A DNA stretch of 64,000 nucleotides from an uncultured Gemmatimonadales bacterium (GCA_963783305.1 CAWAMW010000011.1:96001-160000), one strand, 5' to 3'; positions 45,099 to 61,834 are shown, counted from the stretch's first letter. Notes: generated by a model not told the origin, from the sequence alone. A program made the numbers and translations.

Positions 45099-48000
45099 AT
45101 GAGATACCCGGAGTTCCCGGAAACCCACCGAGCGCTGGAGGAGGACGTTCTCCAGCGTTGGCGCGATGAAGAACTGTTCGCCCGCACGTTGGAAGCCACG
45201 GCGGAGGGGGAGCCGTTCGTCTTTTATGAGGGTCCGCCCACGGCGAACGGACGGCCGGGGATCCATCATGTCTTCGCGCGCACGCTGAAGGACCTCGTCT
45301 GCCGGTACCAGACCATGCAGGGCCGGCACGTGACGCGGAAGGCGGGGTGGGACACGCACGGCCTCCCTGTGGAGATCGAGGCGGAGAAGAAGCTCGGGAT
45401 CAGCGGCAAGCGGGAGATCGAGGAGCTGGGCGTCGCCCGCTTCAACGAGGTCTGCCGGGAGAGCGTTTTCACGTACAAGGAGGAGTGGGAGCGGCTGAGC
45501 GAGCGGATCGGGTACTGGCTCGACTACTCCGATCCCTACGTCACGTTCGAGCCCGAGTATATCGAGACGGTCTGGTGGCTGCTCAAGCAGCTGGACGACC
45601 GGAACCTCATCTATCGCGGCTACCGCAGCGTGCCGTACTGCCCACGGTGCGGCACGGCGCTCAGCTCGCACGAGGTAGCGCAGGGCTATCGCGAGGTGGA
45701 AGATCCCTCCGTGCATGTCCTCTGCCGCGTCCTCGGCCTCGACGGCGAGCCGACGGACCGCGCGCTCCTGGCCTGGACCACGACCCCGTGGACGATCCCG
45801 TCCAACTCGGCGCTGGCGGTGAACCCCGATCTCACGTACGCGGAAGTCGAGCACGATGGGCTGCGCGTGGTGGTCGCCGATGCCCTCGTGGAACGCGTGT
45901 TCGGAGAGGGGGCCGAGCCGGTCCGGCGCCTGCCTGCGTCCGAGCTCATCGGCCTGCGCTACCAGCGCCCGCTCGACCTGATCGATGTGGACGACGCCCA
46001 GCGGGAGGCCGGCTGGAAGGTGGTCCCCGCCGATTTCGTGAGCGATGAGGACGGCACCGGGGTCGTGCACATTGCACCGGCGTTCGGTTCCGACGACTAC
46101 GCGGCCGGGCAGACACACAGGCTTCCCATGCTGCGGCCCATCGACGATGCGGGGCGTTTCGAGGAGGGCATCCCGCGGGTGGGCGGGATGTTCGTGAAGG
46201 ACGCGGACCCGCTCCTGCTGGCCGCCATGGAAGAGGAGGGAGTCCTGTTCCGGAAGGGTCGGGTGAAGCACTCCTATCCGCACTGCTGGCGCTGCGACAG
46301 CCCGCTCATCTACATGGCCCGGGACTCCTGGTACATCCGGACCACCGCCGTGAAGGAGGCGATGCTCGCCAACAACCGGCGGGTGGGGTGGAACCCGCCG
46401 GAAATCGGCACCGGCCGGTTCGGCGAGTGGCTGGAGGGCAACATCGACTGGGCGCTCTCCCGTGACCGCTACTGGGGCACGCCCCTCCCGGTCTGGCTGT
46501 GTGACGCGAACGCGGAGCACCGCGAGGTGGTGGGATCGTTCGCGGAGCTGGCGGAGCGCGCCGGCGAGCTGCCTTCGGACTTCGACCCGCACAAGCCGTT
46601 CATCGATGAGCTGACGTGGCCGTGCCCCGCGTGTGAGGGCACCATGCACCGCACGCCGGAGGTGATCGACGCGTGGTTCGACTCGGGCGCCATGCCCTTC
46701 GCACAGTGGCACTACCCGTTCGGGGACCCCGACGCCTGGGAGCGCCACTACCCCGCGGACTTCATCGCCGAGGGGCTCGACCAGACGCGCGGCTGGTTCT
46801 ACAGCCTCATGGCCATCTCCACGATGCTGGATCCGGAGCCACAGGGGCCGGTCTATCGGAATGTCCTGGTGAACGGACTGGTTCTGGATCGCGACGGGCA
46901 GAAGATGTCGAAGTCGCGCGGCAACACGGTGAACCCATGGGACGCCATCGAGACGTTCGGTGCCGATGCCATCCGCTGGTACCTCGTGACCGTGAGTCAG
47001 CCGTGGGCGCCCAAGCGATGGGACGAGGAGGCGCTGGGCGAGACTGTTCGGCGCACGTTCGACACCCTGGCGAACACGTACCGGTTCTTCGCCATGTACG
47101 CCAACCTGGAGGAGTGGTCCCCGCCCGAGAGCCCGCATGGCGCCGACCGACCGACCGCTCATGGATCGGTGGCTCCTGTCCAGACAGGCGGAGCTGGTGG
47201 GCGAGGTGCGTCGCGCCCTGGACGGCTATGACCTCACGCGGGCCGCCCGGCTCATCGCGGATTTCGTGGTGGATGATCTGTCCAACTGGTACATCCGCAG
47301 GGGCCGCGACCGCTTCTGGGGATCGGCGGACGCCACCGATACGCGCTCCGCGTTCCAGTCGCTCTGGGAGGCGCTGGTGACCGTGAGCCGGCTCATGGCC
47401 CCGATCACGCCCTTTCTCTCCGACTGGATCCACCGGGCGCTGGGCCTCGAGTCGGTCCACCTCGCCGCGTACCCCGAGCGCCACCAGGGGCTGCGCGACG
47501 AGGCGCTGGACGCCGGGATGGAGGGTGTGCGCACCCTGGCCAGCCTGGGACGCGCCGCGCGCGAGCAGGTGCAGATCCGCGTCCGGCAGCCCCTCGCCAC
47601 CCTCTACGCCGTCACCCCGCGGAAGCTCGATCTTTCCCCGGAACTGCTGGCGGTGCTGAAGGACGAGCTGAACGTGAAGACCGTGGAGTTCCTGGACGTG
47701 GCCGAGGAGCTGGTCACCCTGGAGGCGAAGCCGAACTTCAGGCTTCTGGGTCAGAAATTCGGCAGCCACACGCAGGAGGCCGCGGCGGGCATCCGCGCGT
47801 TGAGCAGCGACGCCCTCTGGGCGTTCCAGTCCGGGGAGCAGATCGTGATCGAAGTGAACGGCGAGTCCCACGACCTCCAGCCGGACGACCTCGAGATCCA
47901 GAAGGTGGCCAGGGGAGAGCTGGTGGTGGAGACGGGGGACGGCTTCACGGTGGCCCTGGACCCCACCCTCGACCGAGACCTGCGACTCGAGGGACTGGGC

Positions 48001-48273
48001 CGGGAGCTGGTGAACCGAACGCAGCGGCTCCGTCGCGACGCCGGGCTCGAGGTGAGCGACCGGATCGAGCTCTGGATCAGCGGCGACGAGGACGCGGTCA
48101 CGGCCGCCCGGCTCCACGCCGACTACATCACGGGCGAGACGCTCGCCACGACCCTGGAGGTCGCGGCGCCGCCGGAATCCGACGCGATCCATACCCGCGA
48201 CGTGGAGCTGGACGACGTCGCGGCGTCCATCGCGCTGCGGCGATCCGGGGGTGGCGATGCCGCTGACGGCTGA
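45099..48273 (+). CDS. ileS: Isoleucine--tRNA ligase, type 2, split by a frameshift near 47130-47157
   Basis: EGPPTANG, GIHH, GWDTHGLP, WTTTPWT, GTGVVHIAP, KMSKS in 45099-47231; anticodon domain DRWLLS...LSNWYIRR in frame 47137-48273. Confidence 0.93.
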
Positions 48274-49167: not shown

Positions 49168-50125
49168 CGCGCGGCGGCTGGAGGTGGACGAGGCCGCTGT
49201 CGGCGAGCGCCTCGACGCCCACGTAGCGGAGCGGGTACCGGAGCTCTCGCGGAGTCGCGTCGTGCAGCTCATCGGGGACGGCCGGATCCGCCTGAACGGC
49301 GCCGAAGCCCGGAAGAGCGCGCGGCTGGAGCCGGGGGACGTCATCAATGTTGAGATCCCGGACCCGGAGCCGAGCGAGGTCGAGGCGGAGGACATTCCGC
49401 TGGAGATCGTATTCGAGGACCGGGACCTGCTGGTGGTGAACAAGCCGAGCGGCCTGGTGGTTCACCCGGCACCCGGTCATCGGAGCGGGACCATGGTGAA
49501 CGCGCTGCTGCACCACGTGGACGACCTGTCCGGCATCGGTGGCGTGAAGCGGCCCGGCATCGTGCACCGGTTGGACAAGGACACGTCCGGTCTGCTCATC
49601 GTGGCAAAGCACGACCGCGCCCACCGCAAGCTGTCCGCGGCGCTGAAGCGGCGCGACATCCACCGGATCTATCTCACCGTCTGCTGGGGCCACCTGGAGG
49701 AGGACCGGCTGAGCGTGGAGGCGCCGGTCGGCCGCTCGAACCGCAACCGGAAGCGGATGGCGGTCGTGGAGTCCGGACGCCGGGCGCTCACGCACTTCGA
49801 GCGGGTCCAGCGCTGGGTCGCCGCCGACCTGCTGCGCGCCCGCCTGGAGACGGGTCGCACGCACCAGATCCGCGTCCACCTCGCCCATATCGGCCACCCG
49901 GTCGTGGGCGACAAGCAGTACGCCGGCGGCGGCGCTCGCGGGATCAGCGGGACGGGACACCTCTGGGCGCGCGAGCTGGAGCGCCGGGTGCCAACCCACT
50001 TCCTCCACGCCCATCGCCTCGAGTTCGAGCACCCCAGGACGGGGCAGCCGATGGAGTTCGAAGCGCCGCTCCCTTCCACCCTGGCGGGGGCGGCCGAATG
50101 GGCGGCCGAGACGAGCGCGCGTTGA
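49160..50125 (+). CDS. rluD: RluA/RluD-family pseudouridine synthase
   Basis: S4 domain, HRLDKDTSG, TGRTHQIRVH. Confidence 0.92.
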   Translation: MGSARRLEVDEAAVGERLDAHVAERVPELSRSRVVQLIGDGRIRLNGAEARKSARLEPGDVINVEIPDPEPSEVEAEDIPLEIVFEDRDLLVVNKPSGLVVHPAPGHRSGTMVNALLHHVDDLSGIGGVKRPGIVHRLDKDTSGLLIVAKHDRAHRKLSAALKRRDIHRIYLTVCWGHLEEDRLSVEAPVGRSNRNRKRMAVVESGRRALTHFERVQRWVAADLLRARLETGRTHQIRVHLAHIGHPVVGDKQYAGGGARGISGTGHLWARELERRVPTHFLHAHRLEFEHPRTGQPMEFEAPLPSTLAGAAEWAAETSAR

Positions 50126-50151
50126 CCCGTTCCCGTCCGTCGGGATATCTT
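50122..50151 (+). promoter_or_regulatory. Putative sigma70 promoter of the TPR-Mgl operon
   Basis: TTGACC-18 bp-TATCTT. Confidence 0.55.
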
Positions 50152-50186
50152 CCATCCTCTCCCCCCGCACACGCACCCGACCGCCC

Positions 50187-52796
50187 ATGATCCAACGGCC
50201 CGAGGCCGTCACAGGCGCCGGACCCGAGGCCGGGGGCCGTCCCCGAGCGGCTCGTCGCTCGGCCATGTCCGAACGCGACGTGTCCATTCTCCGCTCGTTG
50301 GCCGACCGCATCGACCCCGGGGACGCTGGCGCCCACAACAACCTCGGAGTCCTCTTCTTTCAGAAGGGGCTCTTCGACGACGCGGTGGCCGCCTTCGAAC
50401 GGGCGCTCGAGCTCGATCCGCGACTGGAAGTGGCGCGCCAGAACGCCGAGATCGCGTTCAAGGAGAGCGGCCATTTCGAAGAGCGCGTGCGCTCGCTTCG
50501 CGAGGCTCTCCGCGCCGACCCCGCCAGCGCCGACAGCCGCGACGCCCTCGCCCGCACCTACCTGATGGGCGGCGACCCCGCGAGTGCGGCGGCCGAGTGG
50601 ACGGCGCTGCTCCGGCAGTACCCCCAGAGTACTCCGCTCCACATGAAGCTGGCGTACGCGGAAGCCGAACGCGGCCGCGTGCAGGTGGCGGTCCACCTGC
50701 TGGAGGAGGCCGCGCGCCTCTCCCCGGAGTTGGCCGCCGTCCGGCTCCAGCTCGCCGAGCTGATGCTGGACACCGGAATGCCCGTCCGGGCCGAGCGCGA
50801 GGTGCGGCGCGCCGTCGCACTGGATCCGATGGCGTCGCGGGCGCAGCAGTTCCTCGCTCGCCTGCTGGAGGAGACCGGCCGGACGGAGGAGGCCACGGAG
50901 GCGCTGGAGCGGGCGAAGGAGCTGGACCCGGCGGCGGGCAGCTCGACCGGGCATCTGTCCCTCGACCGGTACCGCTCCGCGGCGCGGGCAAAACGCAGGC
51001 GCGAGGGTCGGCCCGAGCCGGTGACAGAGGCGGGGCTCGGCGGTCTGGCACGCGCGACGGAGCTCCGCCGGAACGGCAACCTGCGGGGCGCCGCGGAGGA
51101 GCTGGAACGGGAGCTGACGGCCGGCGACGCGTCGCTGGAGGTCCGGCAGGCGAGCGCCGAGATCCACCTTCTCATGGGCGACCTCGAGGCGGCGGCCGAC
51201 GCCTACGGTGCTCTGGTGGCGGAACGGGAGGACAGCCCCAAGCTCTGGAATGAGCGCGGGGTCGCCGTTCACCGTCTCGCCCGGTTCGATGAGGCCGTGC
51301 ACGCGTACCGCCGCACCGTTGCCCTCGACCACGCCTACTCCCTCGGCTGGAACAACCTGGGGGTGGCGCTGGCTCAGAGGGGGGAAGAGGGAGCGGCCGA
51401 GCGAGCGCTCCGACAGGCGACCGCGGGGACGGCGCCGCCCGAGATTCTGTGGAATCTGGGGTTGTTCCTCACCCGCTTGGAGCGTCCTGATGAGGCGGTG
51501 GAGACCTATCGGGAGGCGCTTGAGATCGACCGCTCCTCCGCCGAGTCGTGGGCACGCCTCGGGAGCGCTCTCTTCCAGGCACGAGAGCCGGCGGGCGCAC
51601 GGGACGCGCTGCTCCAGGCGCTGGAGCGCGATCCGGATCTGGCGGACGCCCGCTATCAGTTGGGCTTCGCCCTCTCCGCCCTCGGAGACTTCCGCGGCGC
51701 GTTGAGGGAGACACAGCGCGCGCTGGAGCAGGCGCCCGTCATCCCTACCCCACAGTACCAGCTGCTCATCGACGCCCAGTTCGAGGACGGCACGCTCCCA
51801 GCGCCCGAGACTACCGAGGGGGAGCGGGTTCCATCCGGATCCCCCGTGGCCGGGTTCGATTTCGAACCGAAGTCTCTCGACAATGCCTTCGCCGGGTTCA
51901 GGCCCCGGGACCCCTCGCCGGGCACCGCGGAGATCCAGACGTTCGTCGACGAGGGCCGGACCGCGCTCCGCCGTGGCCAGCTCAGGAAGGCCGCGGCGGC
52001 GGCAAGCCGCGCGGTGCGGGCGGCGCCAGAGGCGCTGGATCCGCGGCTGATCGAGGGGGAGGTGCTCCTCCGACAGGGGCTGGCGGGCGAGGCGCTCGAG
52101 CGATTCGAGGGCGTGCTCAGGGGCGAGGCCGATACCCGGCAGGTGCGGGAGGCGCTCACCGGCCGCGCCCGTGCGCTCCTCGACCTGGGTCGAGCCAAGG
52201 ACGCGATTGCGGCCGCGCGTGCGGTGGAGGACGCCGGGGGCGGGGGATCGTTCACGGCGCGGGCGCTCCTCGCCGCCGAGCGGTGGACGGACGCAGTGTC
52301 GGCGTTCGAGCGGGCGGTCCAGAACGGCGAAGTGGACGCTACCACCCTGGCAGGGTACGGCAGTGCGCTGCTCGGCGCAGGCCGACCGGCGGACGCGCGA
52401 AAAGTGTTTACCCGATCGCTGGCCACCAGCCCCTCCGTAGCCGCGCGGGTGGGTCTGGGGCAAGCTCTCGAGGCCCTGGGCGACCGCCCTGGCGCCATGA
52501 GGGCGTACCGGGAAGGAGTCACCGCGCTGCCGAGTTACGGCCCGGCCGTCCTGAGGCTCGCCATGGCGGAGTGGCGATCGGGGAAGGCCCAGGACGCCGT
52601 CCGATCACTGGTCCAGTTCCTCGACCTCGACCCGACGCACGTGGCCGCGCTGGTCCAGCTGGGCACCTGGCTCGGAGAGCTCGGACGGGTCGAGCAGGCG
52701 CTGCGGTCGCTCCATCGAGCGTTGAGCCTCGATGCGGGGAACGCAGAGGCGCGCCGGGAGCTCGAGCGCTTGAGCGCCGCCGGAAGGGGGGGCTGA
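50187..52796 (+). CDS. Large multi-TPR protein
   Basis: Many TPR units (AHNNLGV, LWNERGV, GWNNLGV, ARYQLG); start 50187 or 50265. Confidence 0.9.
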   Translation: MIQRPEAVTGAGPEAGGRPRAARRSAMSERDVSILRSLADRIDPGDAGAHNNLGVLFFQKGLFDDAVAAFERALELDPRLEVARQNAEIAFKESGHFEERVRSLREALRADPASADSRDALARTYLMGGDPASAAAEWTALLRQYPQSTPLHMKLAYAEAERGRVQVAVHLLEEAARLSPELAAVRLQLAELMLDTGMPVRAEREVRRAVALDPMASRAQQFLARLLEETGRTEEATEALERAKELDPAAGSSTGHLSLDRYRSAARAKRRREGRPEPVTEAGLGGLARATELRRNGNLRGAAEELERELTAGDASLEVRQASAEIHLLMGDLEAAADAYGALVAEREDSPKLWNERGVAVHRLARFDEAVHAYRRTVALDHAYSLGWNNLGVALAQRGEEGAAERALRQATAGTAPPEILWNLGLFLTRLERPDEAVETYREALEIDRSSAESWARLGSALFQAREPAGARDALLQALERDPDLADARYQLGFALSALGDFRGALRETQRALEQAPVIPTPQYQLLIDAQFEDGTLPAPETTEGERVPSGSPVAGFDFEPKSLDNAFAGFRPRDPSPGTAEIQTFVDEGRTALRRGQLRKAAAAASRAVRAAPEALDPRLIEGEVLLRQGLAGEALERFEGVLRGEADTRQVREALTGRARALLDLGRAKDAIAAARAVEDAGGGGSFTARALLAAERWTDAVSAFERAVQNGEVDATTLAGYGSALLGAGRPADARKVFTRSLATSPSVAARVGLGQALEALGDRPGAMRAYREGVTALPSYGPAVLRLAMAEWRSGKAQDAVRSLVQFLDLDPTHVAALVQLGTWLGELGRVEQALRSLHRALSLDAGNAEARRELERLSAAGRGG

Positions 52797-53915
52797 GTGC
52801 CCATCGAGGGACCGCTGAAGGAGCTCGGGATCCAGGACGTGCTCCAGATGCTCGACCTGGCGCAGAAGACCGGCATCCTGACCGTGCGCTCGCAGCGCAT
52901 GATGGATGAGGCGGTGGTCCATATGCTGGACGGTGAGCTCGTCTTCGCAAGCCGTCGTCGGTCCATGCGCCTTCTCGGTCAGCAGCTGCTCCGGGACGGG
53001 AAGCTGACGGAGAAGGAGCTCGAGCGGGCGCTCGAAATGCAGCGTCGCGACTCGAAGCAGCGGCTGGGAGCCATCCTCGTGGAGATGGGGAGCGTGGATC
53101 GGAGCGAGCTCGACCGGCAGCTCCGGTTCCAGATCGAGGAGACGATCTACGACCTGCTGGCGTGGGATGAGGGCTATTTCCATTTCGAGGAGACCGACGA
53201 GACGCCACCGGGACCCGTGCGGGTCCGGGTGGATTCGCTCCTGATGGAAGGCGCTCGCCGGATCGACGAGTGGACGCGGCTGGAATCGCGGGTCCCCAGC
53301 TCCGACGCCGTGCCCGTACTCTTCGCGAAGGAAGGGGACAGCGGGCTCATCGACCTCCGCCCGGAGCAGTGGGAGGTGCTGGCGGAGATCGACGGAGAAC
53401 GGGACCTCCGCCTGATCGCCAGCGAGCTGGGGCGGAGCGCGTTCGACGTGGCCAAGATCGTGTACGGGCTCGTGACCATGAACGTGGTCAGCGTCAGCGA
53501 GCGCCCGCTGAAGATCAAGGACGAGGCCCTGATCCCGATCCTCGACGAGCTGGAGCTCATGCTGGCCGATGGCGAGCTGGAGGCGGCCGAGCGGCGCGCA
53601 AGGGAGATCCAGAAGGAGTACCCCGATCGCGTCGAGCTGCCGCTCCTGACGGGCCGCGCCCTCGCCGCTCAGGGCCGGCTGAGGGCCGCCGCCGAATCCT
53701 TCGATCGGGCGGTGACCCTCGACCCGCTGTCCCCGGACGCCCATTATCAACTGGGACTCGCCGCAGCCAGAGCGGGCGAGATCGACCGCGCCATGGAGGC
53801 ATGGTCCACTTTTCTACGGCTGAACCTGGGCGGCGACCGACGCACGTTCGTCGAGGCCGCCTTCGATGCGATGACCGATCTGAAACACGCCCTCGACGCC
53901 GCGCCCACGGAATGA
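52797..53915 (+). CDS. DUF4388 protein with MshEN-like motifs and C-terminal TPR
   Basis: G.L.E....DVLQ.L...KTG.L N-terminus; LLMEGARRIDEW; TPR tail. Confidence 0.82.
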   Translation: MPIEGPLKELGIQDVLQMLDLAQKTGILTVRSQRMMDEAVVHMLDGELVFASRRRSMRLLGQQLLRDGKLTEKELERALEMQRRDSKQRLGAILVEMGSVDRSELDRQLRFQIEETIYDLLAWDEGYFHFEETDETPPGPVRVRVDSLLMEGARRIDEWTRLESRVPSSDAVPVLFAKEGDSGLIDLRPEQWEVLAEIDGERDLRLIASELGRSAFDVAKIVYGLVTMNVVSVSERPLKIKDEALIPILDELELMLADGELEAAERRAREIQKEYPDRVELPLLTGRALAAQGRLRAAAESFDRAVTLDPLSPDAHYQLGLAAARAGEIDRAMEAWSTFLRLNLGGDRRTFVEAAFDAMTDLKHALDAAPTE

Positions 53916-54778
53916 CTGAACGCGATCTGCAGCGCTGGAGCAGGGAGGTGGCCGAGGACCCCGGCGCCCCCTCGTTCGTCCGCCTGGCCCGCGCGTGTCG
54001 CCGGCAGGGCCGGCACCAGGCCGCACGCGACATCGTGCACGGCGGCCTCACCCGGCATCCCGAGCACGTGGACGCACACGCGCTCCTCGCCCTCATCCAT
54101 ATCGATGGCGGCCAGCGTCAGCAGGCACGCGACGAGTGGGAGACCGTTCTCCGCCTCGATCCCGGGAACTTCGATGCCAGCCGCGGACTCGGGTTCCTGG
54201 CTCTCGAGCGCAACGATCTGATCGCCGCCCGCCGTCACCTGGATGCCGCCGCCGCCGCGCGCCCCGATGACCCGGCGGTCTCTCAGGCGCGGCAGGTGCT
54301 CGATCGGCGGGAGGACGCCGCCGCTCCCTCCGACCTCCCGGGCGCGCGCGTCCACACCGGCGCCCGTGACCCCGCGCGCACCGGAGCCCGTGACCCCGCG
54401 CGCACCGGAGCCCGTGACCCCGCGCGGCTCTTTACCGCCCTCGCCGCGGAGGCCCCCTTCAAGGGCGCCCTCGTGCTCGACGACCAGGGAATGGTCCTGG
54501 CCGGAGGACTGGACAGCGATGCCCTGTCCGATGACCTCCTCGGCGCGCTCCTCACTACCACGGTCGCGGAGGCCAGCCGAACGACCGGAATGCTTCAACT
54601 CGGCGATTGGAACGAAATGCTGATCGAGACGGATTCGGCCACACTCCACCTTACCGCCCTCCCCGGCGCCGCGGTCCTGGTGGTCGTGGCGGAGCCGGAC
54701 ACGCCCGCCGGATGGGTGGTTCGGGCCGCCGGCAGGGCGGCGGAGATGGCCCGGCGCTTCATGGAGGTGGGGACATGA
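53912..54778 (+). CDS. TPR + Roadblock/LC7 fusion protein
   Basis: N-terminal TPRs; C-terminal GALVLDDQGMVLA...LQLGDW..MLIET Roadblock fold. Confidence 0.8.
   Translation: MTERDLQRWSREVAEDPGAPSFVRLARACRRQGRHQAARDIVHGGLTRHPEHVDAHALLALIHIDGGQRQQARDEWETVLRLDPGNFDASRGLGFLALERNDLIAARRHLDAAAAARPDDPAVSQARQVLDRREDAAAPSDLPGARVHTGARDPARTGARDPARTGARDPARLFTALAAEAPFKGALVLDDQGMVLAGGLDSDALSDDLLGALLTTTVAEASRTTGMLQLGDWNEMLIETDSATLHLTALPGAAVLVVVAEPDTPAGWVVRAAGRAAEMARRFMEVGT
54355..54426 (+). repeat. 3 x 24-bp in-frame tandem repeat (TGARDPAR)
   Basis: CACCGG(C/A)GCCCGTGACCCCGCGCG three times, one mismatch. Confidence 0.95.
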
Positions 54779-55125
54779 ATGGAGCCGTAGAGCGGGCGCT
54801 GAGTACGCTGACCCGGATCGATGGGGTGCGGGGTGCCATGGTAGTGGACAGAGAGGGAGGGGTGCCCGTCCTGGCGAAGCTGACCACCGGGGTGCCCGAG
54901 ACGGCGCTGGCGGCCATGTCGGGGCTGCTCTTCGGCCGGACCACGGAGGCTTCACAGTCGGCGGGATTCGGCCGACTGGGTGTGCTCCAGCTTCAGGCGG
55001 ACGGGGGGCATATGGTCCTGGCGGGGGCGGGACCGCTCCTGGTCGTGGTTTTGACGGAGGCCGACGCGCGACTGGGTCTGGTGCGGGTCCAGGCGGCGCG
55101 GGCCGCGGGCGAGCTGAGCGAATGA
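54775..55125 (+). CDS. Roadblock/LC7 protein (MglB/MglC-like)
   Basis: GVRGAMVVDREGGV, LAAM, ARLGLVR; 116 aa. Confidence 0.85.
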   Translation: MNGAVERALSTLTRIDGVRGAMVVDREGGVPVLAKLTTGVPETALAAMSGLLFGRTTEASQSAGFGRLGVLQLQADGGHMVLAGAGPLLVVVLTEADARLGLVRVQAARAAGELSE

Positions 55126-55607
55126 GACGCGAAGATGTGAAGCGCGTGGCCGAAGCACTTGCCGAGCCGATGAAGACGTTCGTGCGGGACTCCCGTGTCC
55201 GAACGGCCGTGCTCGTCAACCGGAGTGGGCAGGTGCTGGCGCACCACGGGTTTGGTCAGAGCTACGACATCGGGAACGTGGCCACACTGGCGGCGGCTGC
55301 GCACTCCTCCGCGCACGCGCTGGCACAGCTCACCGGCGCTGGCCGCTGGATGCACCTCCATCACGCCGGCAAGGAGAACCAGCTCTTCCTGGCGCCCTTC
55401 GTCGCCGGCTCCGAGGAGCTGGTGCTGGTGGCCATCTTCGACAACGATTCCACGCTGGGCCTCGTCCAGCTCTTCTTCGACCGCCTCGCCGAGGCCATCC
55501 AGCAAATACCCGAGCTCGGGGGCGCCCTCGTGCCGGGCGATGTCGAGGCGTTCGAGAGTGATCTCGAGGCGGGGCTCGACCGACTGCTGCCCGAGAGCGG
55601 CGACTGA
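55122..55607 (+). CDS. mglB: MglB-like Roadblock GTPase regulator
   Basis: AVLVNRSGQVLA, ATLAAA, LHHAG, VAIFDNDSTLGLV; directly upstream of mglA. Confidence 0.8.
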   Translation: MRREDVKRVAEALAEPMKTFVRDSRVRTAVLVNRSGQVLAHHGFGQSYDIGNVATLAAAAHSSAHALAQLTGAGRWMHLHHAGKENQLFLAPFVAGSEELVLVAIFDNDSTLGLVQLFFDRLAEAIQQIPELGGALVPGDVEAFESDLEAGLDRLLPESGD

Positions 55608-56209
55608 TGCCCGTGGTCCAGTACTCTTCTCGGGAGATCCTGTGCAAGATCGTGTACTACGGTCCGGCCAGGAGCGGCAAGACCACCAACCTGCAGTGGG
55701 TCCACCGTTCACTCCCCGATGGGCGGAGCAGTGAAATGGTCTCCCTGGCCACCGAGAACGATCGCACCCTCTTCTTCGACTTCCTGCCCCTCGACCTGGG
55801 CGAGATCTCGGGCTTCCGCACACGGCTCCAACTCTACACCGTCCCCGGCCAGGTCTACTACAACGCTACACGTCGGCTGGTACTGAGGGGCGCCGATGGC
55901 GTCGTCTTCGTGGCGGACTCGGAGCCACGGCGCCGGCGAGACAACATGGAGAGCCTGCGCAACCTCCAGGAGAACCTGCTGGAGAACGACTTCGACATCC
56001 GGGAGCTTCCGCTGGTCCTCCAGTACAACAAGCAGGACCTGGAGGGGGCCCGGCCGAAGTCCGAGATGGACGACGAGCTGAACTTTCGCGACGTCCCGTC
56101 GCACGGGGCGTCCGCCGTCCAGGGTGTGGGGGTCATTCCCACGCTGCGCTCGGTGAGCGAGATGGTGCTCCACAGCGTATCACGGCGCTTCGCCTCGCCC
56201 ACGGCCTGA
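55607..56209 (+). CDS. mglA: MglA-family small GTPase
   Basis: KIVYYGP..SGKTTNL, DRTLFFDF, YTVPGQ, GADGVVFVADS, NKQD. Confidence 0.93.
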   Translation: MPVVQYSSREILCKIVYYGPARSGKTTNLQWVHRSLPDGRSSEMVSLATENDRTLFFDFLPLDLGEISGFRTRLQLYTVPGQVYYNATRRLVLRGADGVVFVADSEPRRRRDNMESLRNLQENLLENDFDIRELPLVLQYNKQDLEGARPKSEMDDELNFRDVPSHGASAVQGVGVIPTLRSVSEMVLHSVSRRFASPTA

Positions 56210-56216
56210 CCGCAGC

Positions 56217-58040
56217 ATGCCCCTAGACCTGGATCCGCGCTTCACCTTCGACTCCTTCGTGGTCGGCCCCGCCAACCGTCTGGCGGTGGCCGCCGCCCGC
56301 CGCGTCTCGGACGCACCCGGCACCACGTACAACCCGCTCTTCATCTACAGCGGGTCGGGGCTCGGGAAGACCCATCTCCTCGGCGCCATCGGTCACCAGA
56401 TCGAGAGGGTCCATGGGATGAAGGTGGTCTCTGACACGATGGAGCACCTCATGGAGGCCATCAGCGCAGCCGTCGAAGCCGGAGAGCGCGACGCCTTCCG
56501 GGGGGCGCTCCGGGAGGCGGGGCTCCTGCTCCTCGACGATGTACAGTTCCTGGCCGGTCAGCGGCAGATCCAGGAAGAGCTGCTCCGCATCTGGGATGCG
56601 CTGGCAGCCCGCGGCACACAGGTGGTTCTCACCAGCGATCGCCAACCGCAGGAGATCGACGGAATCGATGACCGCCTCCTGAGCCGGCTCTCCGGCGGCC
56701 TCATTGTCGACATCAGCGCCCCCGACTACGAGACGCGGGTCGCCATCGCCCGGCGAAAGGCCGAAGAGCGCGGGAGCATCCTGGCCCAGGGAGTGTTTCA
56801 GTCGCTGGCGCGGATCGCGTTCACGAACGTGCGGGAGCTCCAGGGTGCGCTGAACCGCATCATCGCCGTGCAGGAGCTCGAGGGCAGGGAAGTCACGCCC
56901 GACGACGTGCCGGAGCTCCTGGGATCCGCCGCCGACCGCGGACGGGACGAGTTCGGCGAGTTCCTCTCCGACATCACCGGCTCGGTGGACGACGTGGTGC
57001 AGCGGGCCGACCGCTACATCGCGGACGCCATCCTGGCGTGGGAAGGAGAATCCTACCGCACCCGGCGACTCGACAGCGCTCTCACCGGCCATGTCACCGG
57101 GGCGGAGGCGCAGGAGGTGGTGCGGCGGTTCGAGCAGGACATCGTTCGGCTCCGGGAGATCGAGAACGAGATACGGCAGCTGGACCCGGCAGCCCGGGAG
57201 CTCGAGAGTTCCGTGTTGCGGGACCCCGACCGCGTGGCCGAAGCCGAATCGCTCCTCAGCACCGTCCGTGAGCGCCAGTCACCGCCCCCCGCTCCCCCCG
57301 AGGGTCTCGCCCTGGGCGAGCTGGATGGCGCGGAGACGCTCGCAGTTCGCGCGGCCCTGTCGGTCGCCGACCAGCCGGGCAGCGCGTTCAACCCGCTGTA
57401 CGTGCTCGGGCCGGCCGGCTCCGGGCGCTCGACCCTGCTGATCGCCCTGGCCAATGCCCTCGTGGGACGGGGGTTGACGGTGGCGTACATGGACGGCGCC
57501 ACGTTTGCCGAGGAGCTGATTGACGCGCTGGAACGGAGCCGCCTCGAGGCATGGCGCGCCCGGCTCAGGGGAGCCGACGTGCTGGTCCTCGACGACCTGC
57601 ACGAGCTGGCCGGCCTGGAGCGCGGGTACGAAGAGCTCTTTCACCTCATCGACGGGCTCCACCGGGAGGGCCGCCAGCTGGTGTTCTCCGCCAACGTGCC
57701 GCCGCAGGCGCTGCCGTTCCCATCACGTTTGCAGAGCCGCCTCGAGGCCGGGCTCGTCGTGGAGCTCCAGCCGCCGACCCAACGGCAGGCGCCGACCCCG
57801 GACGCGGTGTACGCCGGATCCCCGGAACCCGCGGTGGGGGCGGTGGACGGCATGGGGGCGGCTGAGCCGGGTTCCCAGAAGGCCGCGGACCGGCCGGACG
57901 CGACGGCAACGAGCGAGACCGCGCCTGCCGGCGAACAGGGCCGCTCGGCAAGACACGCCGCGCACTGGATTCTCAGCCGCGAAAAGGTCCTGTGGGAATG
58001 GCCCTACTCACAGGACTGGATCGAGGAGGACCCGGACTGA
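56217..58040 (+). CDS. Protein with two DnaA/Hda-type AAA+ modules, lacking DnaA domains I and IV
   Basis: FTFDSFVVG..N, YNPLFIY.GSGLGKTHLL, DDVQF, RLLSR, NVREL.GAL; second FNPLYVLGPAGSGRS, DDLHEL, RLQSR. Confidence 0.85.
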   Translation: MPLDLDPRFTFDSFVVGPANRLAVAAARRVSDAPGTTYNPLFIYSGSGLGKTHLLGAIGHQIERVHGMKVVSDTMEHLMEAISAAVEAGERDAFRGALREAGLLLLDDVQFLAGQRQIQEELLRIWDALAARGTQVVLTSDRQPQEIDGIDDRLLSRLSGGLIVDISAPDYETRVAIARRKAEERGSILAQGVFQSLARIAFTNVRELQGALNRIIAVQELEGREVTPDDVPELLGSAADRGRDEFGEFLSDITGSVDDVVQRADRYIADAILAWEGESYRTRRLDSALTGHVTGAEAQEVVRRFEQDIVRLREIENEIRQLDPAARELESSVLRDPDRVAEAESLLSTVRERQSPPPAPPEGLALGELDGAETLAVRAALSVADQPGSAFNPLYVLGPAGSGRSTLLIALANALVGRGLTVAYMDGATFAEELIDALERSRLEAWRARLRGADVLVLDDLHELAGLERGYEELFHLIDGLHREGRQLVFSANVPPQALPFPSRLQSRLEAGLVVELQPPTQRQAPTPDAVYAGSPEPAVGAVDGMGAAEPGSQKAADRPDATATSETAPAGEQGRSARHAAHWILSREKVLWEWPYSQDWIEEDPD

Positions 58041-59659
58041 TGGCGATCAAGGGCAGTCTCCGCGAGGCGGGGCTGGCGGACGTGTGCCAGCTCCTCTCCA
58101 TGGGCCAGAAGACGGGGCGGCTATCGGTCACCGACGGCTCTCGCTTCGGACAGATCTATTTCGACCGCGGCCGCATCAATTTCGCCACCATCGTGAACCG
58201 GCGCGACCGACTCGGCGACCTCCTGGTGCGCGACGGGGCCGTGCGGCACGACCAGCTCATGGAAGCGGTGGACGCGCAGGCGGAGCGGCCCGACCGGCGC
58301 CTGGGCGAGATCCTGCTCGAGCGCGGCCTCATCGACAGCGCCACCCTCACGGCCTCGATCGAGCGGCAGATCGAGGAGGCCATCTACTACCTGTTCACCT
58401 GGAAGCAGGGCAGCTTCTACTTCGAGCCGGGGAAGGCGCCGGAGAGCGGTGAGATCCTGATCCGCGTGAATCCGGAGAACCTGCTGCTCGAGGGCGCTCG
58501 CCGAGTCGATGAGTGGGGCGTGATCGAGAAGAAGGTCCCCTCCATGAACCTCATCTTCGGCCTGGACCGTGAGCGCATGGAGGATGCGGACGTGCAGTTG
58601 ACGCCGAGTCAGCGCGCCCTCGTGCCGCTGATCGATGGCGACCGTACGGTGGAGGACCTGGCAGAGGAATCTGGGCTCGGGGAGTTCGCCACGGGAAAGG
58701 CCCTCTACGGGCTGATCCAGGCCGGCTTCGCGTTCCGCGTGGGCCGCCGGGCCGGCGCGGAGCCGGTGGAGGCCGGGGATGTGGACGAGGCTCGAAACCT
58801 GGGCGCCGCGTTCTACGAGACGGCGATGCTCGATGACGCCGAGCGCGAGTTCCGCCGGGCGCTGCGGAGTCGCCCGCACGACGTCACCGCCCGGCACTTC
58901 ATGGCGCTCATCGCGCTGCGGAAAGGTGAGGCCGCCGAGGCGATCCGGCGCCTCTCCGCCCTCCTCGAGGACGCCGGACCACGGACCGGCGTGTTCCTGA
59001 ACCTGGCCTTCGCACTCCGACTCGAGCGTCGGTACTCCGATGCACTCCGCGTCCTCGACGCGGCTCAGAAGTCCGCGCCGAACGATCCGCGGGTCCGGCT
59101 CGCGCGGGGCGCGACCCTGCTCTTCGCGGGCGAGATCGCCGCCGCCGCCGAAGCGCTCGACGAGTACCGCACCATGCTCCACCCCGACACGCTCCCGCCC
59201 GCGCCCTACTACTACTGCGTCGGGCTCGCCGCCACCGTGGCCGGCCGCATGGAGGACGCCGACGCTCTCCTCGATGAGGCGCTCGGGGCCCATCCCGCAT
59301 CGCCGCCGCTCCACCTCCTGGCCGGGAACCTGGCGGAGAGGCGGGCCGATATGGCGGCGGCCGAGCGCTCCTACCAGCAGGCCGCCGAAGAGGACCCGGC
59401 GCTCGCACAGGCGCATCGAAATCTCGGCGACCTGGCAAGCCGGCGGGGCGTGGACCGAGAGGCCCTCGAGCACTATCGCCGGGCCGCCGAAGTGGACGCC
59501 TCGCTGGGGGACGAGCTCTACATGCGGCTCGCCGACCTGCACTACCGCCACAACGCCCGGGAGGAGGCGATCCGCTGCTGGAGGCGTGCCCTGGAGCTGA
59601 ACCCCGGGAACCAGGTGGCTCGGAACCACCTCGAGCTGGTGGCCCGTGCCGCCCGCTGA
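58040..59659 (+). CDS. DUF4388 protein with tandem MshEN-like motif and TPR array
   Basis: Paralogous N-terminus to 52797-53915; LLLEGARRVDEW; several TPRs. Confidence 0.82.
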   Translation: MAIKGSLREAGLADVCQLLSMGQKTGRLSVTDGSRFGQIYFDRGRINFATIVNRRDRLGDLLVRDGAVRHDQLMEAVDAQAERPDRRLGEILLERGLIDSATLTASIERQIEEAIYYLFTWKQGSFYFEPGKAPESGEILIRVNPENLLLEGARRVDEWGVIEKKVPSMNLIFGLDRERMEDADVQLTPSQRALVPLIDGDRTVEDLAEESGLGEFATGKALYGLIQAGFAFRVGRRAGAEPVEAGDVDEARNLGAAFYETAMLDDAEREFRRALRSRPHDVTARHFMALIALRKGEAAEAIRRLSALLEDAGPRTGVFLNLAFALRLERRYSDALRVLDAAQKSAPNDPRVRLARGATLLFAGEIAAAAEALDEYRTMLHPDTLPPAPYYYCVGLAATVAGRMEDADALLDEALGAHPASPPLHLLAGNLAERRADMAAAERSYQQAAEEDPALAQAHRNLGDLASRRGVDREALEHYRRAAEVDASLGDELYMRLADLHYRHNAREEAIRCWRRALELNPGNQVARNHLELVARAAR

Positions 59660-60074
59660 CAAGAGCGGCTCGGGCCGGCCCAGGGAGGGCCCGCAGAACG
59701 AACGGGCCCGCGCCCTCGTGTGGAGGAGCGGAGATGCCCTCCTGGCCGTTCCTCTGGCCGCGGTGCTGGAGATCGCCGCCCCCGACGCCGACGGGCGCGT
59801 TCGGAGCCGCGTCGGGTCCCTCCCTGTCAGCACGGTCCCCGGATTGCCGCCGGCCGCGAACCCACCCCGCGCGGTCGTGATACGGGCGGGAGGCGCCACC
59901 GTGGCTCTCGCCGCGGATGATGTGGAAGGGGTTCGCGAGTACACCGCGCGCGAGAGTGCCCGCACACCGCCCTGGCTCCGGCTGCTCAACATTGACCATC
60001 TCGCGGGTCTGGTGAGGCTCGACGAGGGTCGTGTCGCCGCCCTGCTCGCCGTCGAAACCCTGCACCCGTCGTGA
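59646..60074 (+). CDS. Short CheW-like protein
   Basis: LLAVPLAAVLEI, VALAADDVEGV, GLVRLDEGRVAALL CheW-type strands. Confidence 0.6.
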   Translation: MPPADKSGSGRPREGPQNERARALVWRSGDALLAVPLAAVLEIAAPDADGRVRSRVGSLPVSTVPGLPPAANPPRAVVIRAGGATVALAADDVEGVREYTARESARTPPWLRLLNIDHLAGLVRLDEGRVAALLAVETLHPS

Positions 60075-61102
60075 ATCCGCCGCGACGCGGTCGTTGCGCC
60101 AACCGGCGGCTCGTTCCCGCCGCGCTGCTGCTCACCGCCTTCTGTGCCCTCGCGACCTCCTTCGCCCCTGTGTCCGCCCAGGATGCGGTCCGGGCCGGAG
60201 AAGTGACGCTCCACTTCTGGCCACAGCAGCGGGCGCTCGCGACGCAGATCGTTACGCGGATGGCGGAGCAGCTTCCGCTCCCCGCACTGCCCGATTCGGT
60301 CCTCGTCGGCGGCACCGTCGACGTGTACCTGGCCTATGATGCAGCGCGGTGGGACAGCCTTACCGGCGGTGCGGCACCGGAGTGGGGCGCGGGTGTCGCC
60401 GACCCGGCCGCGGGTCTCATCGTCCTCCCGACCTTCGACTGGGAGCGCACCCCGCCGCACACGATCTACCGCACGCTCCGGCACGAGCTCGCCCACGTGG
60501 CGCTCCAGCGCTACCTCGGCGAGGCCAGAATCCCGCGGTGGTTCAGCGAGGGGTACGCGCAGTGGGCGGCGGGGGAGTGGCGCTGGGAATCCGCATGGCA
60601 GCTGCGGATGGCCTTCGTCCGCAGCGACTCGCCGCCCCTCGACTCCCTGACCCTCCACTGGCCCGTCGCGGAGACCGACGCTCGCCTGGCGTACCTGCTG
60701 TCTGCCAGCGCCGTGGCCTACCTGGTGGAGCGAAGCGGTGAGCGGGGCATTCGCATCCTGCTGGAGCAGTGGCGGGAGGATGTCGACTTCGATGCCGCCT
60801 TCCGCTCCGTCTACGGCCTCACGATCGGCCAGTTCGAGGAAGACTGGCGGGCGTACGTGAAGCGCACCTACGGCTGGACCGTCGTCCTCGGCCACTCCCT
60901 CTTCTTCTGGGTGATCGCCGCCGTCCTTCTGCTGGTCCTCTTCTTCATTCGACGACGACGCGACCGCGCCCGACTCGACACGCTCAGGGCCACCGAGCCC
61001 CCGGACGATCCCGCCTACTGGGAGATCGACTTCGACCCGCCGCTTCCGCCCCGCCCCGGCGAACCCGCGCCGCCGGGTCCGCACGTTGACCCGGGCGGAT
61101 GA
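60071..61102 (+). CDS. Membrane-anchored HExxH metallopeptidase (peptidase MA-like)
   Basis: Signal peptide, RHELAH, PRWFSEGYA, C-terminal TM followed by RRRR. Confidence 0.8.
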   Translation: MNPPRRGRCANRRLVPAALLLTAFCALATSFAPVSAQDAVRAGEVTLHFWPQQRALATQIVTRMAEQLPLPALPDSVLVGGTVDVYLAYDAARWDSLTGGAAPEWGAGVADPAAGLIVLPTFDWERTPPHTIYRTLRHELAHVALQRYLGEARIPRWFSEGYAQWAAGEWRWESAWQLRMAFVRSDSPPLDSLTLHWPVAETDARLAYLLSASAVAYLVERSGERGIRILLEQWREDVDFDAAFRSVYGLTIGQFEEDWRAYVKRTYGWTVVLGHSLFFWVIAAVLLLVLFFIRRRRDRARLDTLRATEPPDDPAYWEIDFDPPLPPRPGEPAPPGPHVDPGG

Positions 61103-61113
61103 TCGGCTATCTT
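61086..61113 (+). promoter_or_regulatory. Sigma70 promoter, likely giving a leaderless mRNA
   Basis: TTGACC-16 bp-TATCTT, 6 nt before ATG 61120. Confidence 0.6.
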
Positions 61114-61119
61114 TCCCCC

Positions 61120-61320
61120 ATGATTCAACAGAAAACGCACGTACAGAAGCACCTCCCCCCGTCTCTCAAGTGGACCTCGGTCAACTACGGTCTCATGGGA
61201 GCGGGGCTGCTGTCCCTGGTCGGGGGGTTCTTCCTGCTGGCGAACGCCTCGACCGTGGCCGCGCCCCTGCTGCTGGCCCTCGGATACGTGGTGCTGATCC
61301 CACTCGGGATCGTCCGGTAG
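61120..61320 (+). CDS. Small two-TM membrane protein (DUF3098-like)
   Basis: NY.L...G, APLLL.LGYVV pattern. Confidence 0.65.
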   Translation: MIQQKTHVQKHLPPSLKWTSVNYGLMGAGLLSLVGGFFLLANASTVAAPLLLALGYVVLIPLGIVR

Positions 61321-61335
61321 ACACAACCCGGTTTC

Positions 61336-61410
61336 GGGCGCGTAGCTCAGCTGGTCCAGAGCGCCTGCTTTACACGCAGGATGTCGGGGGTTCGAATCCC
61401 TCCGCGCCCA
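61336..61410 (+). tRNA. tRNA-Val(TAC)
   Basis: GGGCGCG/CGCGCCC acceptor, CCTGC-TTTACAC-GCAGG anticodon arm, TTCGAAT T-loop. Confidence 0.96.
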
Positions 61411-61441
61411 CTTCTCCCTCCACCCTGACACTCAGGCGACC

Positions 61442-61834
61442 ATGCCGTTCAAGGTCCGGCTCATAGAGCAGGGGGCGGTCCTCCTCGTCCGCGCCGTGGG
61501 CGTAGCCGAACCCCGAGACTGGTTCGACCTCGCCGACCGCGCACGCATGGATGGGCGTTCCCCTCGTGGTCTCATCATTGACCTGCGACGCAGGGAGACC
61601 CTGCCCTCGGCCGACCAGGCGCGCGAAACCGGCAGCGGGCTCGCCGGTGTGGCCGTGCACCGATTCGACGCCATCGCGCTCGTGGCTCGCCCCGGCGCCC
61701 AGTTCGGACTCGCCCGCATGGTGGCCCTGTTGACGGAGCTCGAGGAGCTGTCCACAGCTGCGTTCCAGGAGCCGAAGCCGGCGCTGGAGTGGATCCGGCA
61801 GCGACTCGAGGAACGGGCGGTGGGCGGCTCCTGA
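61442..61834 (+). CDS. Hypothetical protein, possibly STAS/SEC14-like fold
   Basis: LIIDLR, IALVA, FGLARM, AF....ALEWI pattern. Confidence 0.55.
   Translation: MPFKVRLIEQGAVLLVRAVGVAEPRDWFDLADRARMDGRSPRGLIIDLRRRETLPSADQARETGSGLAGVAVHRFDAIALVARPGAQFGLARMVALLTELEELSTAAFQEPKPALEWIRQRLEERAVGGS

Follow-up and report, generated by a model that had tools for sequence, protein, structure and literature searches.

Nearly all understanding of how the small GTPase MglA controls cell polarity comes from Myxococcus, whose MglA partners are scattered over the genome and were found one by one. Here we describe a string of ten co-oriented genes (g01 to g10, positions 50187-61102) in a 64,000-nucleotide stretch of DNA from an uncultured soil Gemmatimonadales bacterium (GCA_963783305.1 CAWAMW010000011.1:96001-160000), hereafter the window. 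The string encodes an MglA GTPase and Roadblock proteins together with large TPR proteins, two PATAN (DUF4388) proteins, a DnaA-derived ATPase, part of a CheW and a membrane peptidase. We put at about 55% the probability that it encodes an accessory MglA-type GTPase module, likely setting the place or time at which a polar envelope machine, most probably type IV pili, operates.

The Frz-MglA/MglB(/MglC, RomR-RomX, RomY)-SgmX system of Myxococcus xanthus shares with this locus a group-1 MglA, a Roadblock GTPase-activating protein (GAP), extra Roadblock paralogues and large TPR proteins (PMC4316618, PMC7519303, PMC4719450, PMC9481161). The Frz pathway also has a likeness in the chemosensory (Che)-type input found in Gemmatimonadota relatives of the locus, an input absent from the window's version. 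Myxococcus mglA is not encoded near its partners (PMC4316618), whereas here all parts lie in one gene string. The operon differs further in that no RomR, RomX or FrzZ-like gene was seen in it, in that it also encodes a pair of PATAN-TPR proteins, an ATPase derived from DnaA and a membrane peptidase, and in that its MglA is an additional paralogue. The actinobacterial conservon (CvnA-D) is likewise a conserved operon, in which a sensory kinase is wired to a Roadblock protein and a GTPase of the MglA family (PMC4316618); its MglA, however, belongs to group 2 where ours has group 1-type motifs, it has no PATAN, TPR or AAA+ protein, and it uses a histidine kinase instead of CheA.

Other parts of the locus recall other systems. 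In the cyanobacterial Tax/Pix systems (PixG, PixE, PatA type), PATAN proteins are encoded with Che-type genes, as in the relatives described here, and PATAN-REC regulators are thought to aim type IV pili (PMC9090330; 10.1101/2021.06.11.447907). In contrast, PATAN is here fused to TPR rather than to a receiver, carries an MshEN-type insert and is encoded with a GTPase/GAP pair and an AAA+ protein. The motif of the MshEN receptor (Vibrio cholerae MshE and PilB N-domains; PMC5013675) is common to g08, which has two copies, and g02, which has one strict copy, but it lies inside a PATAN domain instead of at the N-terminus of a secretion ATPase, its spacer is 6 residues and not 5, and it is not retained in most homologues of the phylum. 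Finally, DnaA domain III and Hda are like g07 in their initiator-clade AAA+ fold and in their nucleotide and arginine-finger motifs, with about 42% identity between g07 and DnaA. Unlike them, g07 is without domains I, II and IV, falls below the Hda cut-off, has an extra helical module, a degenerate second AAA+ domain (AAA+2) and an acidic tail, and sits in a genomic context of signalling, not replication.

Conservation and trimming of the operon

We compared the window with three sets of relatives: 18 loci, 80 loci kept out of 155 relatives found by a pattern scan for the g07 module, and nine loci by family. The titles of the 80 loci name Gemmatimonadota from several orders or read 'uncultured bacterium', and counts are over loci with enough flank. 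The order g01-g08 plus g10 was kept in 15 of the 18 loci, while the remaining three (L020, L023, L025) carried g07-g08-g10 without g01-g06 in the stretch fetched, an arrangement also found in two further genomes (G312, G346). Co-conservation, which the first-pass annotation had named beforehand as its refutation test, was thus borne out by gene order and by the presence of g06 and g08 in every locus counted (Table 1); given this recurrence in relatives, the gene arrangement is far beyond chance. A profile of the g07 module matched 275 of 401 genomes of the phylum in 105 of 146 genera (a tally including the unpublished G186), and none of the 22 genomes of families f9-f12. No carrier outside Gemmatimonadota appeared among the named matches (80 loci listed of 155; 83 proteins; the best 120 of 361), all of which are Gemmatimonadota or unclassified. 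One family member is named from Gaopeijia maritima (P0082), and the operon also occurs in metagenome-assembled genomes of Longimicrobium.

Most relatives carry a larger string. Between g08 and g10 they encode cheR, cheD and cheB, often with one or two cheW and a TPR gene (CheR in 59/64, CheD in 60/63 and CheB in 50/55 among the 80 loci). Their g01 is preceded by cheW, cheY, cheA with a P2 domain and cheC/X, with ileS-lspA-rluD ahead of these; a receiver-domain match ahead of g01 was read from the locus rows in 45/80 cases. The phylum-wide order is CheW-CheY-CheA-CheC, the g01-g08 block, then CheR-CheD-CheB-CheW-TPR-peptidase. In the set of nine loci by family, the full Che-Mgl string was present in six (f4, f5, f6, f8), both f2 loci held only rluD-g07-g08-g10, and one f4 locus was fragmented. 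In that locus (L120, G399:C4) several genes of the cluster and its flanks lie in pieces, which assembly error or decay could explain.

The window cluster is a reduced form of this phylum-wide Che-embedded operon. No cheR, cheD or cheB follows g08 in the window or in five close relatives (G001, G004, G005, L036, L042; 6/6), and rluD directly precedes g01 in all four loci of this set in which the upstream flank was seen. CheA and CheY are absent from the window, where rluD abuts g01. The first-pass annotation had described an 'expanded' operon with an 'orphan CheW'; what we find is a trimmed derivative of a larger one, and the supposed orphan is a half-length CheW, missing from 4/6 of the close-relative set, that had no match in NCBIfam. 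In G001, G004 and G005, g10 begins 86-158 bp after g08, leaving no room for g09, and L042 gave no g09 match. Because g09 is kept only in the window and L036 (2/6), it is best read as a relic of lost Che genes. Downstream of it, g10 begins with a signal-like segment and has a single membrane helix towards its C-terminus, both read from the translation, and is predicted to be a membrane-anchored, periplasmic MA-clan peptidase.

The loss of Che genes on both sides, together with a half-length g09 that is gone in 4/6 of the close-relative set, might also mean that the cluster in this genus is a decaying leftover of the Che-embedded operon, without function. We find this hardly credible. All of g01-g08 and g10 are intact open reading frames (ORFs), third-position GC (GC3) is 0.82-0.88 in eight of the ten genes (the values for g03 and g04, 0.67 and 0.72, come from longer ORFs containing them), and all catalytic residues of MglA and of the first AAA+ domain (AAA+1) of g07 are kept. 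The window genes are also kept in order at 54-81% amino acid identity in congeners (G001, G004, G005, G006) and in L036 and L042; the intact rest of the operon and this identity in relatives therefore argue against decay.

Each of the ten plus-strand ORFs contains the domains that the first-pass annotation had named, as confirmed by Pfam, and the tight packing it had described also held, with junctions from a 14-bp overlap to a 7-bp gap. In order from g01, the genes abut (g01/g02), overlap by 4 bp three times, overlap by 1 bp and are separated by 7 bp; g07 and g08 then overlap by 1 bp, g08 and g09 by 14 bp, and g09 and g10 by 4 bp. Among the starts used, those of g03 (ATG 53912) and g04 (ATG 54775) each overlap the preceding stop by 4 bp. 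An alternative start for g08, GTG 57992, gives the longest ORF and a 49-bp overlap with g07, while ATG 58040 shares one base with the g07 stop; alignments to most relatives begin at residue 17 of the longer ORF, and ATG 58040 is the likely start. A search of positions 49900-61500 for promoter-like sites found two against 0.3 expected, both at the ends of the operon only, in keeping with the promoter proposed ahead of the string, and we found no convincing terminator inside it. The ten genes are likely to form one operon.

Table 1. Genes and promoter-like sites of the operon, in window coordinates; the last column gives presence among relatives' loci with enough flank.
Feature	Position	Strand	Assignment	Loci
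Promoter-like site	50122..50151	+	TTGACC, 18-nt spacer, TATCTT; 36 bp 5' of g01; overlaps rluD end; consensus match only	
g01	50187..52796	+	869-aa cytoplasmic TPR protein (TPR_2, E 2.7e-62)	57/57
g02	52797..53915	+	DUF4388/PATAN (E 1.3e-31) and C-terminal TPR, MshEN-like insert	63/63
g03	53912..54778	+	TPR and Robl_LC7 (E 1.2e-7, Pfam)	65/65
g04	54775..55125	+	116 aa, single Robl_LC7 (24.3 bits, cut-off 23)	48/70
g05	55122..55607	+	Robl_LC7 (E 8.9e-9, Pfam); adjoins mglA (g06)	72/72
g06	55607..56209	+	Group-1-type MglA small GTPase	73/73
g07	56217..58040	+	Bac_DnaA, two stretches (E 6.9e-84, Pfam)	
g08	58040..59659	+	DUF4388/PATAN (E 1.8e-36) and long TPR domain	66/66
g09	59646..60074	+	CheW C-terminal half (33.3 bits, cut-off 23.5; profile positions 59-133 of 138)	
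g10	60071..61102	+	Peptidase_MA_2 (E 1.2e-13; 51.8 bits, cut-off 32.4); HELAH	41/45
Second promoter-like site	61086..61113	+	Hexamers TTGACC / TATCTT as at 50122; start of next unit	

MglA, Roadblock and PATAN proteins and their likely output

Group-1 MglA proteins are characterised in PMC4316618 by GxxxxGKT, an Arg beside the switch-I Thr, TVPGQ and NKxD, and g06 has all of these sequence features. Aligned to M. xanthus MglA (5ymx; 228 bits over 191 residues), it keeps the P-loop, DRTLFFDF with the intrinsic Arg, TVPGQ at G3 and NKQD at G4, and the corresponding residues (G24, K25, T26, R53, T54, T78-Q82, N141, K142 and D144) are invariant in 31 cluster-linked MglA homologues. The genome encodes a second mglB-mglA pair on contig C16 (G000:C16:615645-616686), directly after dnaX-ybaB-recR, whose MglA is closer to that of Myxococcus (290 bits versus 228 for g06). 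Since this canonical pair exists, g06 is an accessory paralogue; the MglA/MglB switch of the first-pass annotation stands as to the identities of the MglA and Roadblock proteins, with the qualification that its GTPase is an extra copy. Three cluster-bearing genomes (G017, G019, G040) had two MglA each, and among five cluster-less genomes we found one MglA in two and none in three. As separate observations, the search row for the C16 pair (locus L029 8343-10672) shows one TGA inside the longer surrounding open frame, and the cluster mglA of relative L048 (8646-9227) has an internal stop, which assembly error or decay could explain.

The Roadblock proteins differ among themselves. The best solved relatives of g05 are MglB chains (E 1.9e-11), with 6izw_B and 3t1r_A at about 2e-11, and its adjacency to mglA leads us to predict that it is the GAP of g06. 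The best solved relatives of g04 are Roadblock/LC7 chains (E 4.6e-6), and it is a small paralogue of MglB that can be likened to MglC. In g03, the linker that joins the TPR and Roadblock parts contains a repeated peptide, encoded by a 24-nt unit present three times (54355-54426, 97% matches). At the head of the operon, g01 is a candidate scaffold or effector comparable to SgmX.

Both PATAN proteins scored far above the cut-off of PF14332 (109.6 bits for g02 and 125.3 for g08; cut-off 25), and both passed NF053729, the NCBIfam model of the MshE-related c-di-GMP motif (41.5 and 46.4 bits; cut-off 38). The 24-residue MshEN motif defined in PMC5013675, RLGxx(L/V/I)(L/V/I)xxG..LxxxLxxQ, occurs in two strict copies in g08 (aa 57 and 87); in g02 one strict copy lies at aa 89 and the first copy has L for R. 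In addition, g08 matched residues 6-62 of MshE (5htl_A, E 1e-4), and PilB N-domains were matched as well. The c-di-GMP-type character that the first-pass annotation had given to both DUF4388 proteins is upheld, as to the motif, by the NF053729 scores and by the match to the MshE N-domain. Elsewhere in the genome, a third PATAN protein of 887 aa (G000:C2, about 806354-806647; L032 8316-10979, minus strand) has the order TPR, HD_5, PATAN and carries the HHERWDGAGYPDGL motif of HD-GYP-type domains, but a plain search showed no 'HD' pair within residues 431-620; the protein further links PATAN domains with c-di-GMP.

We propose a role in pilus polarity because the PATAN partners described in the literature that we found are pilus motors, MglA acts on pili with SgmX, and this genome has pilus genes. 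Cyanobacterial PATAN-REC proteins bind the pilus motor PilB1 (PMC9090330), in Myxococcus MglA and the TPR protein SgmX act together to stimulate type IV pili (PMC7519303), and PilB (with an MshEN domain), PilT and PilC are all encoded here, on another contig. In such a circuit g05, aided or tuned by g03 and g04, would be the GAP that confines MglA-GTP, and the TPR proteins would be effectors brought in by MglA-GTP in the way that SgmX is in Myxococcus. Contact with the pilus motor would be made by the PATAN domains, as in cyanobacteria, and these would also report c-di-GMP. In turn, g07 would serve as an ATP-gated oligomerising adaptor whose acidic C-terminus docks into one of the TPR domains, with g08 the most likely partner. 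Resetting of the switch would fall to CheA-CheY in relatives, whereas this genus would be left with c-di-GMP and the nucleotide states as inputs.

Several results weigh against this proposal. The MglB equivalog model NF052242 gave g05 47.9 bits against a cut-off of 200, for which reason we file it as MglB-like and not as an equivalog. Among 70 homologues of g08, two strict MshEN motifs were present in 11 and at least one in 23; because the motif is so patchy, c-di-GMP sensing may be lineage-specific. PilT was above cut-off in 385/401 genomes of the phylum and in 166/166 of family f4, and since it is near-universal its co-occurrence with the cluster does not discriminate. Pili also exist without the cluster, as PilM was found in 4/5 cluster-less genomes. 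The Che types flanking the operon in relatives (CheA with P2, CheC/X, CheD) are often tied to flagella. Nothing was found that indicates what g07 or the peptidase g10 does, and a sequencing-run search listed no RNA run with the stretch; one DNA run that contains it is a soil metagenome, and two runs of the same study have next to none of its sequence words. Separately, PilT-family matches numbered mostly 3-5 in the cluster-rich families f4 and f5, and mostly one in the cluster-poor genera g20, g22 and g75, a comparison uncorrected for relatedness.

The same logic of GTPase, Roadblock, PATAN and ATPase proteins could steer another polar or envelope process, such as gliding, the export of polysaccharides or adhesins, cell division or budding, or the activation of g10 itself, a possibility that we consider less likely. 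The predicted periplasmic metallopeptidase with its cytoplasmic tail is kept with the cluster in most loci (Table 1) and stays with g07-g08 even in the minimal form, the operon has no pilus gene of its own, and members of the MglA family serve several outputs (PMC4316618). However, in the literature that we found, pilus motors alone have been characterised as partners of PATAN domains or of MglA acting with a TPR protein, and no gliding or export genes were seen beside the cluster in the loci examined.

Tuning of flagellar motility, with the module as the output branch of a flagellar-type Che operon in relatives and acting here on a flagellum encoded on contig C7, strikes us as most improbable. 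The genome does have FlhA with a Che cluster about 20 kb from it, CheC/X and CheD occur in the flanks of relatives, and g10 has a weak flagellinolysin-like match (38 bits, cut-off 205), yet most of the sampled genomes with the cluster lack FlhA, and the phyletic pattern of the g07 module disfavours this reading. The module was present in 161/166 genomes of f4 versus 33/166 for FlhA, in 4/4 versus 0/4 of f3 and in 5/5 versus 0/5 of f8 (f3, f6 and f8 together: 11/11 versus 0/11), while in the all-flagellate f10 the relation was reversed (0/12 versus 12/12). A genome of the same genus, G006, has the cluster and no FlhA. Flagella are thus unlikely targets, and pili remain the output that we favour.

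The DnaA-derived ATPase

The gene following mglA, g07, encodes DnaA domain III (aa 1-235), then a helical module (~237-355), a second AAA+ base domain (~375-520), a disordered linker and a conserved acidic tail, so that residues 240-607 comprise everything beyond domain III. The domain III part superimposed on that of Bacillus subtilis DnaA with TM 0.95 (target), a root-mean-square deviation of 1.5 Å and 42% identity, and by eye its N-terminal residues look like those with which that domain begins in DnaA. Pfam (E <= 0.01) found no DnaA_N or Bac_DnaA_C match, that is, neither domain I nor domain IV. These results agree with the first-pass proposal of a repurposed initiator ATPase: DnaA domain III is present and the DNA-binding parts are gone. 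The accompanying description as a 'double' DnaA-type ATPase is right in that two Bac_DnaA stretches were found, but the second half is degenerate in many members. The AlphaFold model of g07 (mean pLDDT 85.8, pTM 0.50) is confident per domain and not in the arrangement of domains, and shows residues 523-593 as disordered.

The two AAA+ domains have diverged in different ways. In AAA+1, the Walker A Lys, the Walker B DD, the sensor I Asp, the box VII Arg and the sensor II Arg are present in 38/38 family members. In AAA+2, the Walker A Lys is kept in 22/38 (the window has Arg) and the second Walker B Asp in 21/38, while the box VII arginine, R504, is kept in 38/38. Because its ATP site is often lost but R504 is invariant, AAA+2 appears to be a dead domain that has been kept as the donor of an arginine finger. 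In some families g07 is shorter (~390 residues), with the helical module and tail and no second AAA+ domain. The C-terminus is always acidic (E-[ES]-x-[DEG], with EEVD in relative L020) and resembles what we take to be the C-terminal peptides bound by TPR clamp domains.

We considered it improbable that g07 acts on replication, co-oligomerising with or capping DnaA in the manner of Hda, with the operon coupling polarity, c-di-GMP or chemosensory state to initiation. Its domain III aligned without gaps to four solved DnaAs at 42-46% identity and exceeded the NCBIfam DnaA cut-off (TIGR00362, 384.9 versus 343.9, over profile positions 103-338 of 437), its AAA+1 motifs are invariant, and public annotation calls such proteins 'DnaA/Hda family protein' or 'chromosomal replication initiator protein'. 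However, in the loci examined g07 always lies between mglA and the PATAN-TPR gene and never with replication genes, a normal dnaA is present on contig C2, the Hda model TIGR03420 gave 155.3 against a cut-off of 194.8, and domains I and IV are missing. A Lys after Walker B, presumably with a role in single-strand binding in DnaA, is present in 4/4 solved DnaAs and in only 1/38 of the g07 family. PMC9198467 names V211 and R245 as B/H-motif residues of Escherichia coli DnaA; the R245 position varies among the aligned solved DnaAs, and a literature search for the names of the single-strand contact residues of Aquifex aeolicus DnaA found nothing relevant.

A bolder version of the polarity role, which we consider speculative and doubtful, is that g07 is a new polarity ATPase. 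It would be an initiator-clade AAA+ protein working off DNA and assembling head-to-tail with ATP, its dead second domain serving as a built-in arginine-finger donor, and would form a platform or timer for the computation of polarity by MglA, the Roadblock proteins and PATAN-TPR adaptors that sense c-di-GMP. The result would be a three-nucleotide (GTP, ATP, c-di-GMP) switch, possibly still cross-talking with DnaA. A complex prediction for g06 with residues 1-375 of g07 scored 0.24, below the mark of 0.32, a result that does not bear on binding either way.

The helical module of g07 (~100 residues) appears to belong to an unnamed repeat family. Modelled alone, it formed a three-helix bundle (pLDDT 88.6) for which Foldseek gave no match at E <= 0.001 and an ESM Atlas look-up no usable match; as its best VIA-align Z of 7.1 (EzrA) is within the range common for helical bundles, we assign it to no specific known fold. 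An exhaustive profile search with the module recovered 391 representative proteins at E <= 0.001. Among the best 150 of these were 24 long proteins (501-3090 aa) with 4-19 tandem copies (including P0153, P0160, P0165, P0217 and P0240), mostly unnamed and metagenomic; of eight array proteins looked up, one was named, from a Methylacidiphilaceae metagenome-assembled genome. A Pfam scan of six of the 24 found that P0153 has at its end a DnaA domain III sharing 43% identity with the one in g07, while one other has a zinc ribbon at its end, one a KaiC-like ATPase at its start and three no Pfam domain. The module and P0153 aligned by hhalign with 87.5% probability and a common W-x-x-EGY-x-T ... DPD pattern; the P0153 locus was not found among metagenome contigs. 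As the module stands next to a DnaA-type ATPase in different orders, we take it to be an unnamed repeat that has joined such ATPases at least twice.

Flanking DNA, literature status and significance

The operon is flanked on the 5' side by ileS, lspA and rluD and on the 3' side by a small membrane ORF, tRNA-Val and hemH. The unit after the operon (61086-61411) holds the small two-helix membrane ORF and then the tRNA-Val (61336-61411). In ileS (45099-48273), a frame shift between 47120 and 47161, at a run of three CCGA units, yields two overlapping ORFs; relatives have a single ileS ORF of 1056-1099 aa, and the frame shift is probably an assembly indel. A reading of the cluster as anti-phage defence was rejected, as PADLOC gave only weak, generic P-loop and TPR matches.

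Parts of the neighbourhood have been noted before. According to PMC4316618, PATAN genes occur close to some mglA genes of groups 1 and 5, and neighbourhoods of MglB with PATAN are credited there to Makarova et al. 2006, work also cited in PMC11580455; the MglA/MglB/PATAN neighbourhood was therefore already known. A literature search found nothing linking 'DnaA-like' with MglA, and the matches listed for 'PATAN' with 'DnaA' had unrelated titles and abstracts. For Gemmatimonadetes or Gemmatimonadota with MglA the search found PMC4316618 only, whose Table S2 neighbourhoods may already show a Gemmatimonas-type locus. Thus the earlier claim that no characterised system has this architecture holds in that none was found in the literature, and has to yield as regards the MglA/MglB/PATAN part. 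The whole operon is an undescribed variant of a chemosensory-to-MglA circuit, to which the window adds a natural Che-less form.

With the kinase and adaptation enzymes of the relatives, the GTPase, three Roadblock proteins, adaptors, ATPase and peptidase in one conserved string, the circuit offers a ready parts list for MglA-dependent control. Its natural deletion variants (full, Che-less as in the window, and Mgl-less as in f2) suit the study of how chemosensing, c-di-GMP and a GTPase are coupled. Beyond replication and transposition, no other function of a DnaA-type AAA+ domain is known to us, and our literature search found no counter-example; if the reading of g07 given here is true, the domain would gain its first such role. 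Gemmatimonadota are abundant in soils and little studied, which makes their surface behaviour of interest in itself.

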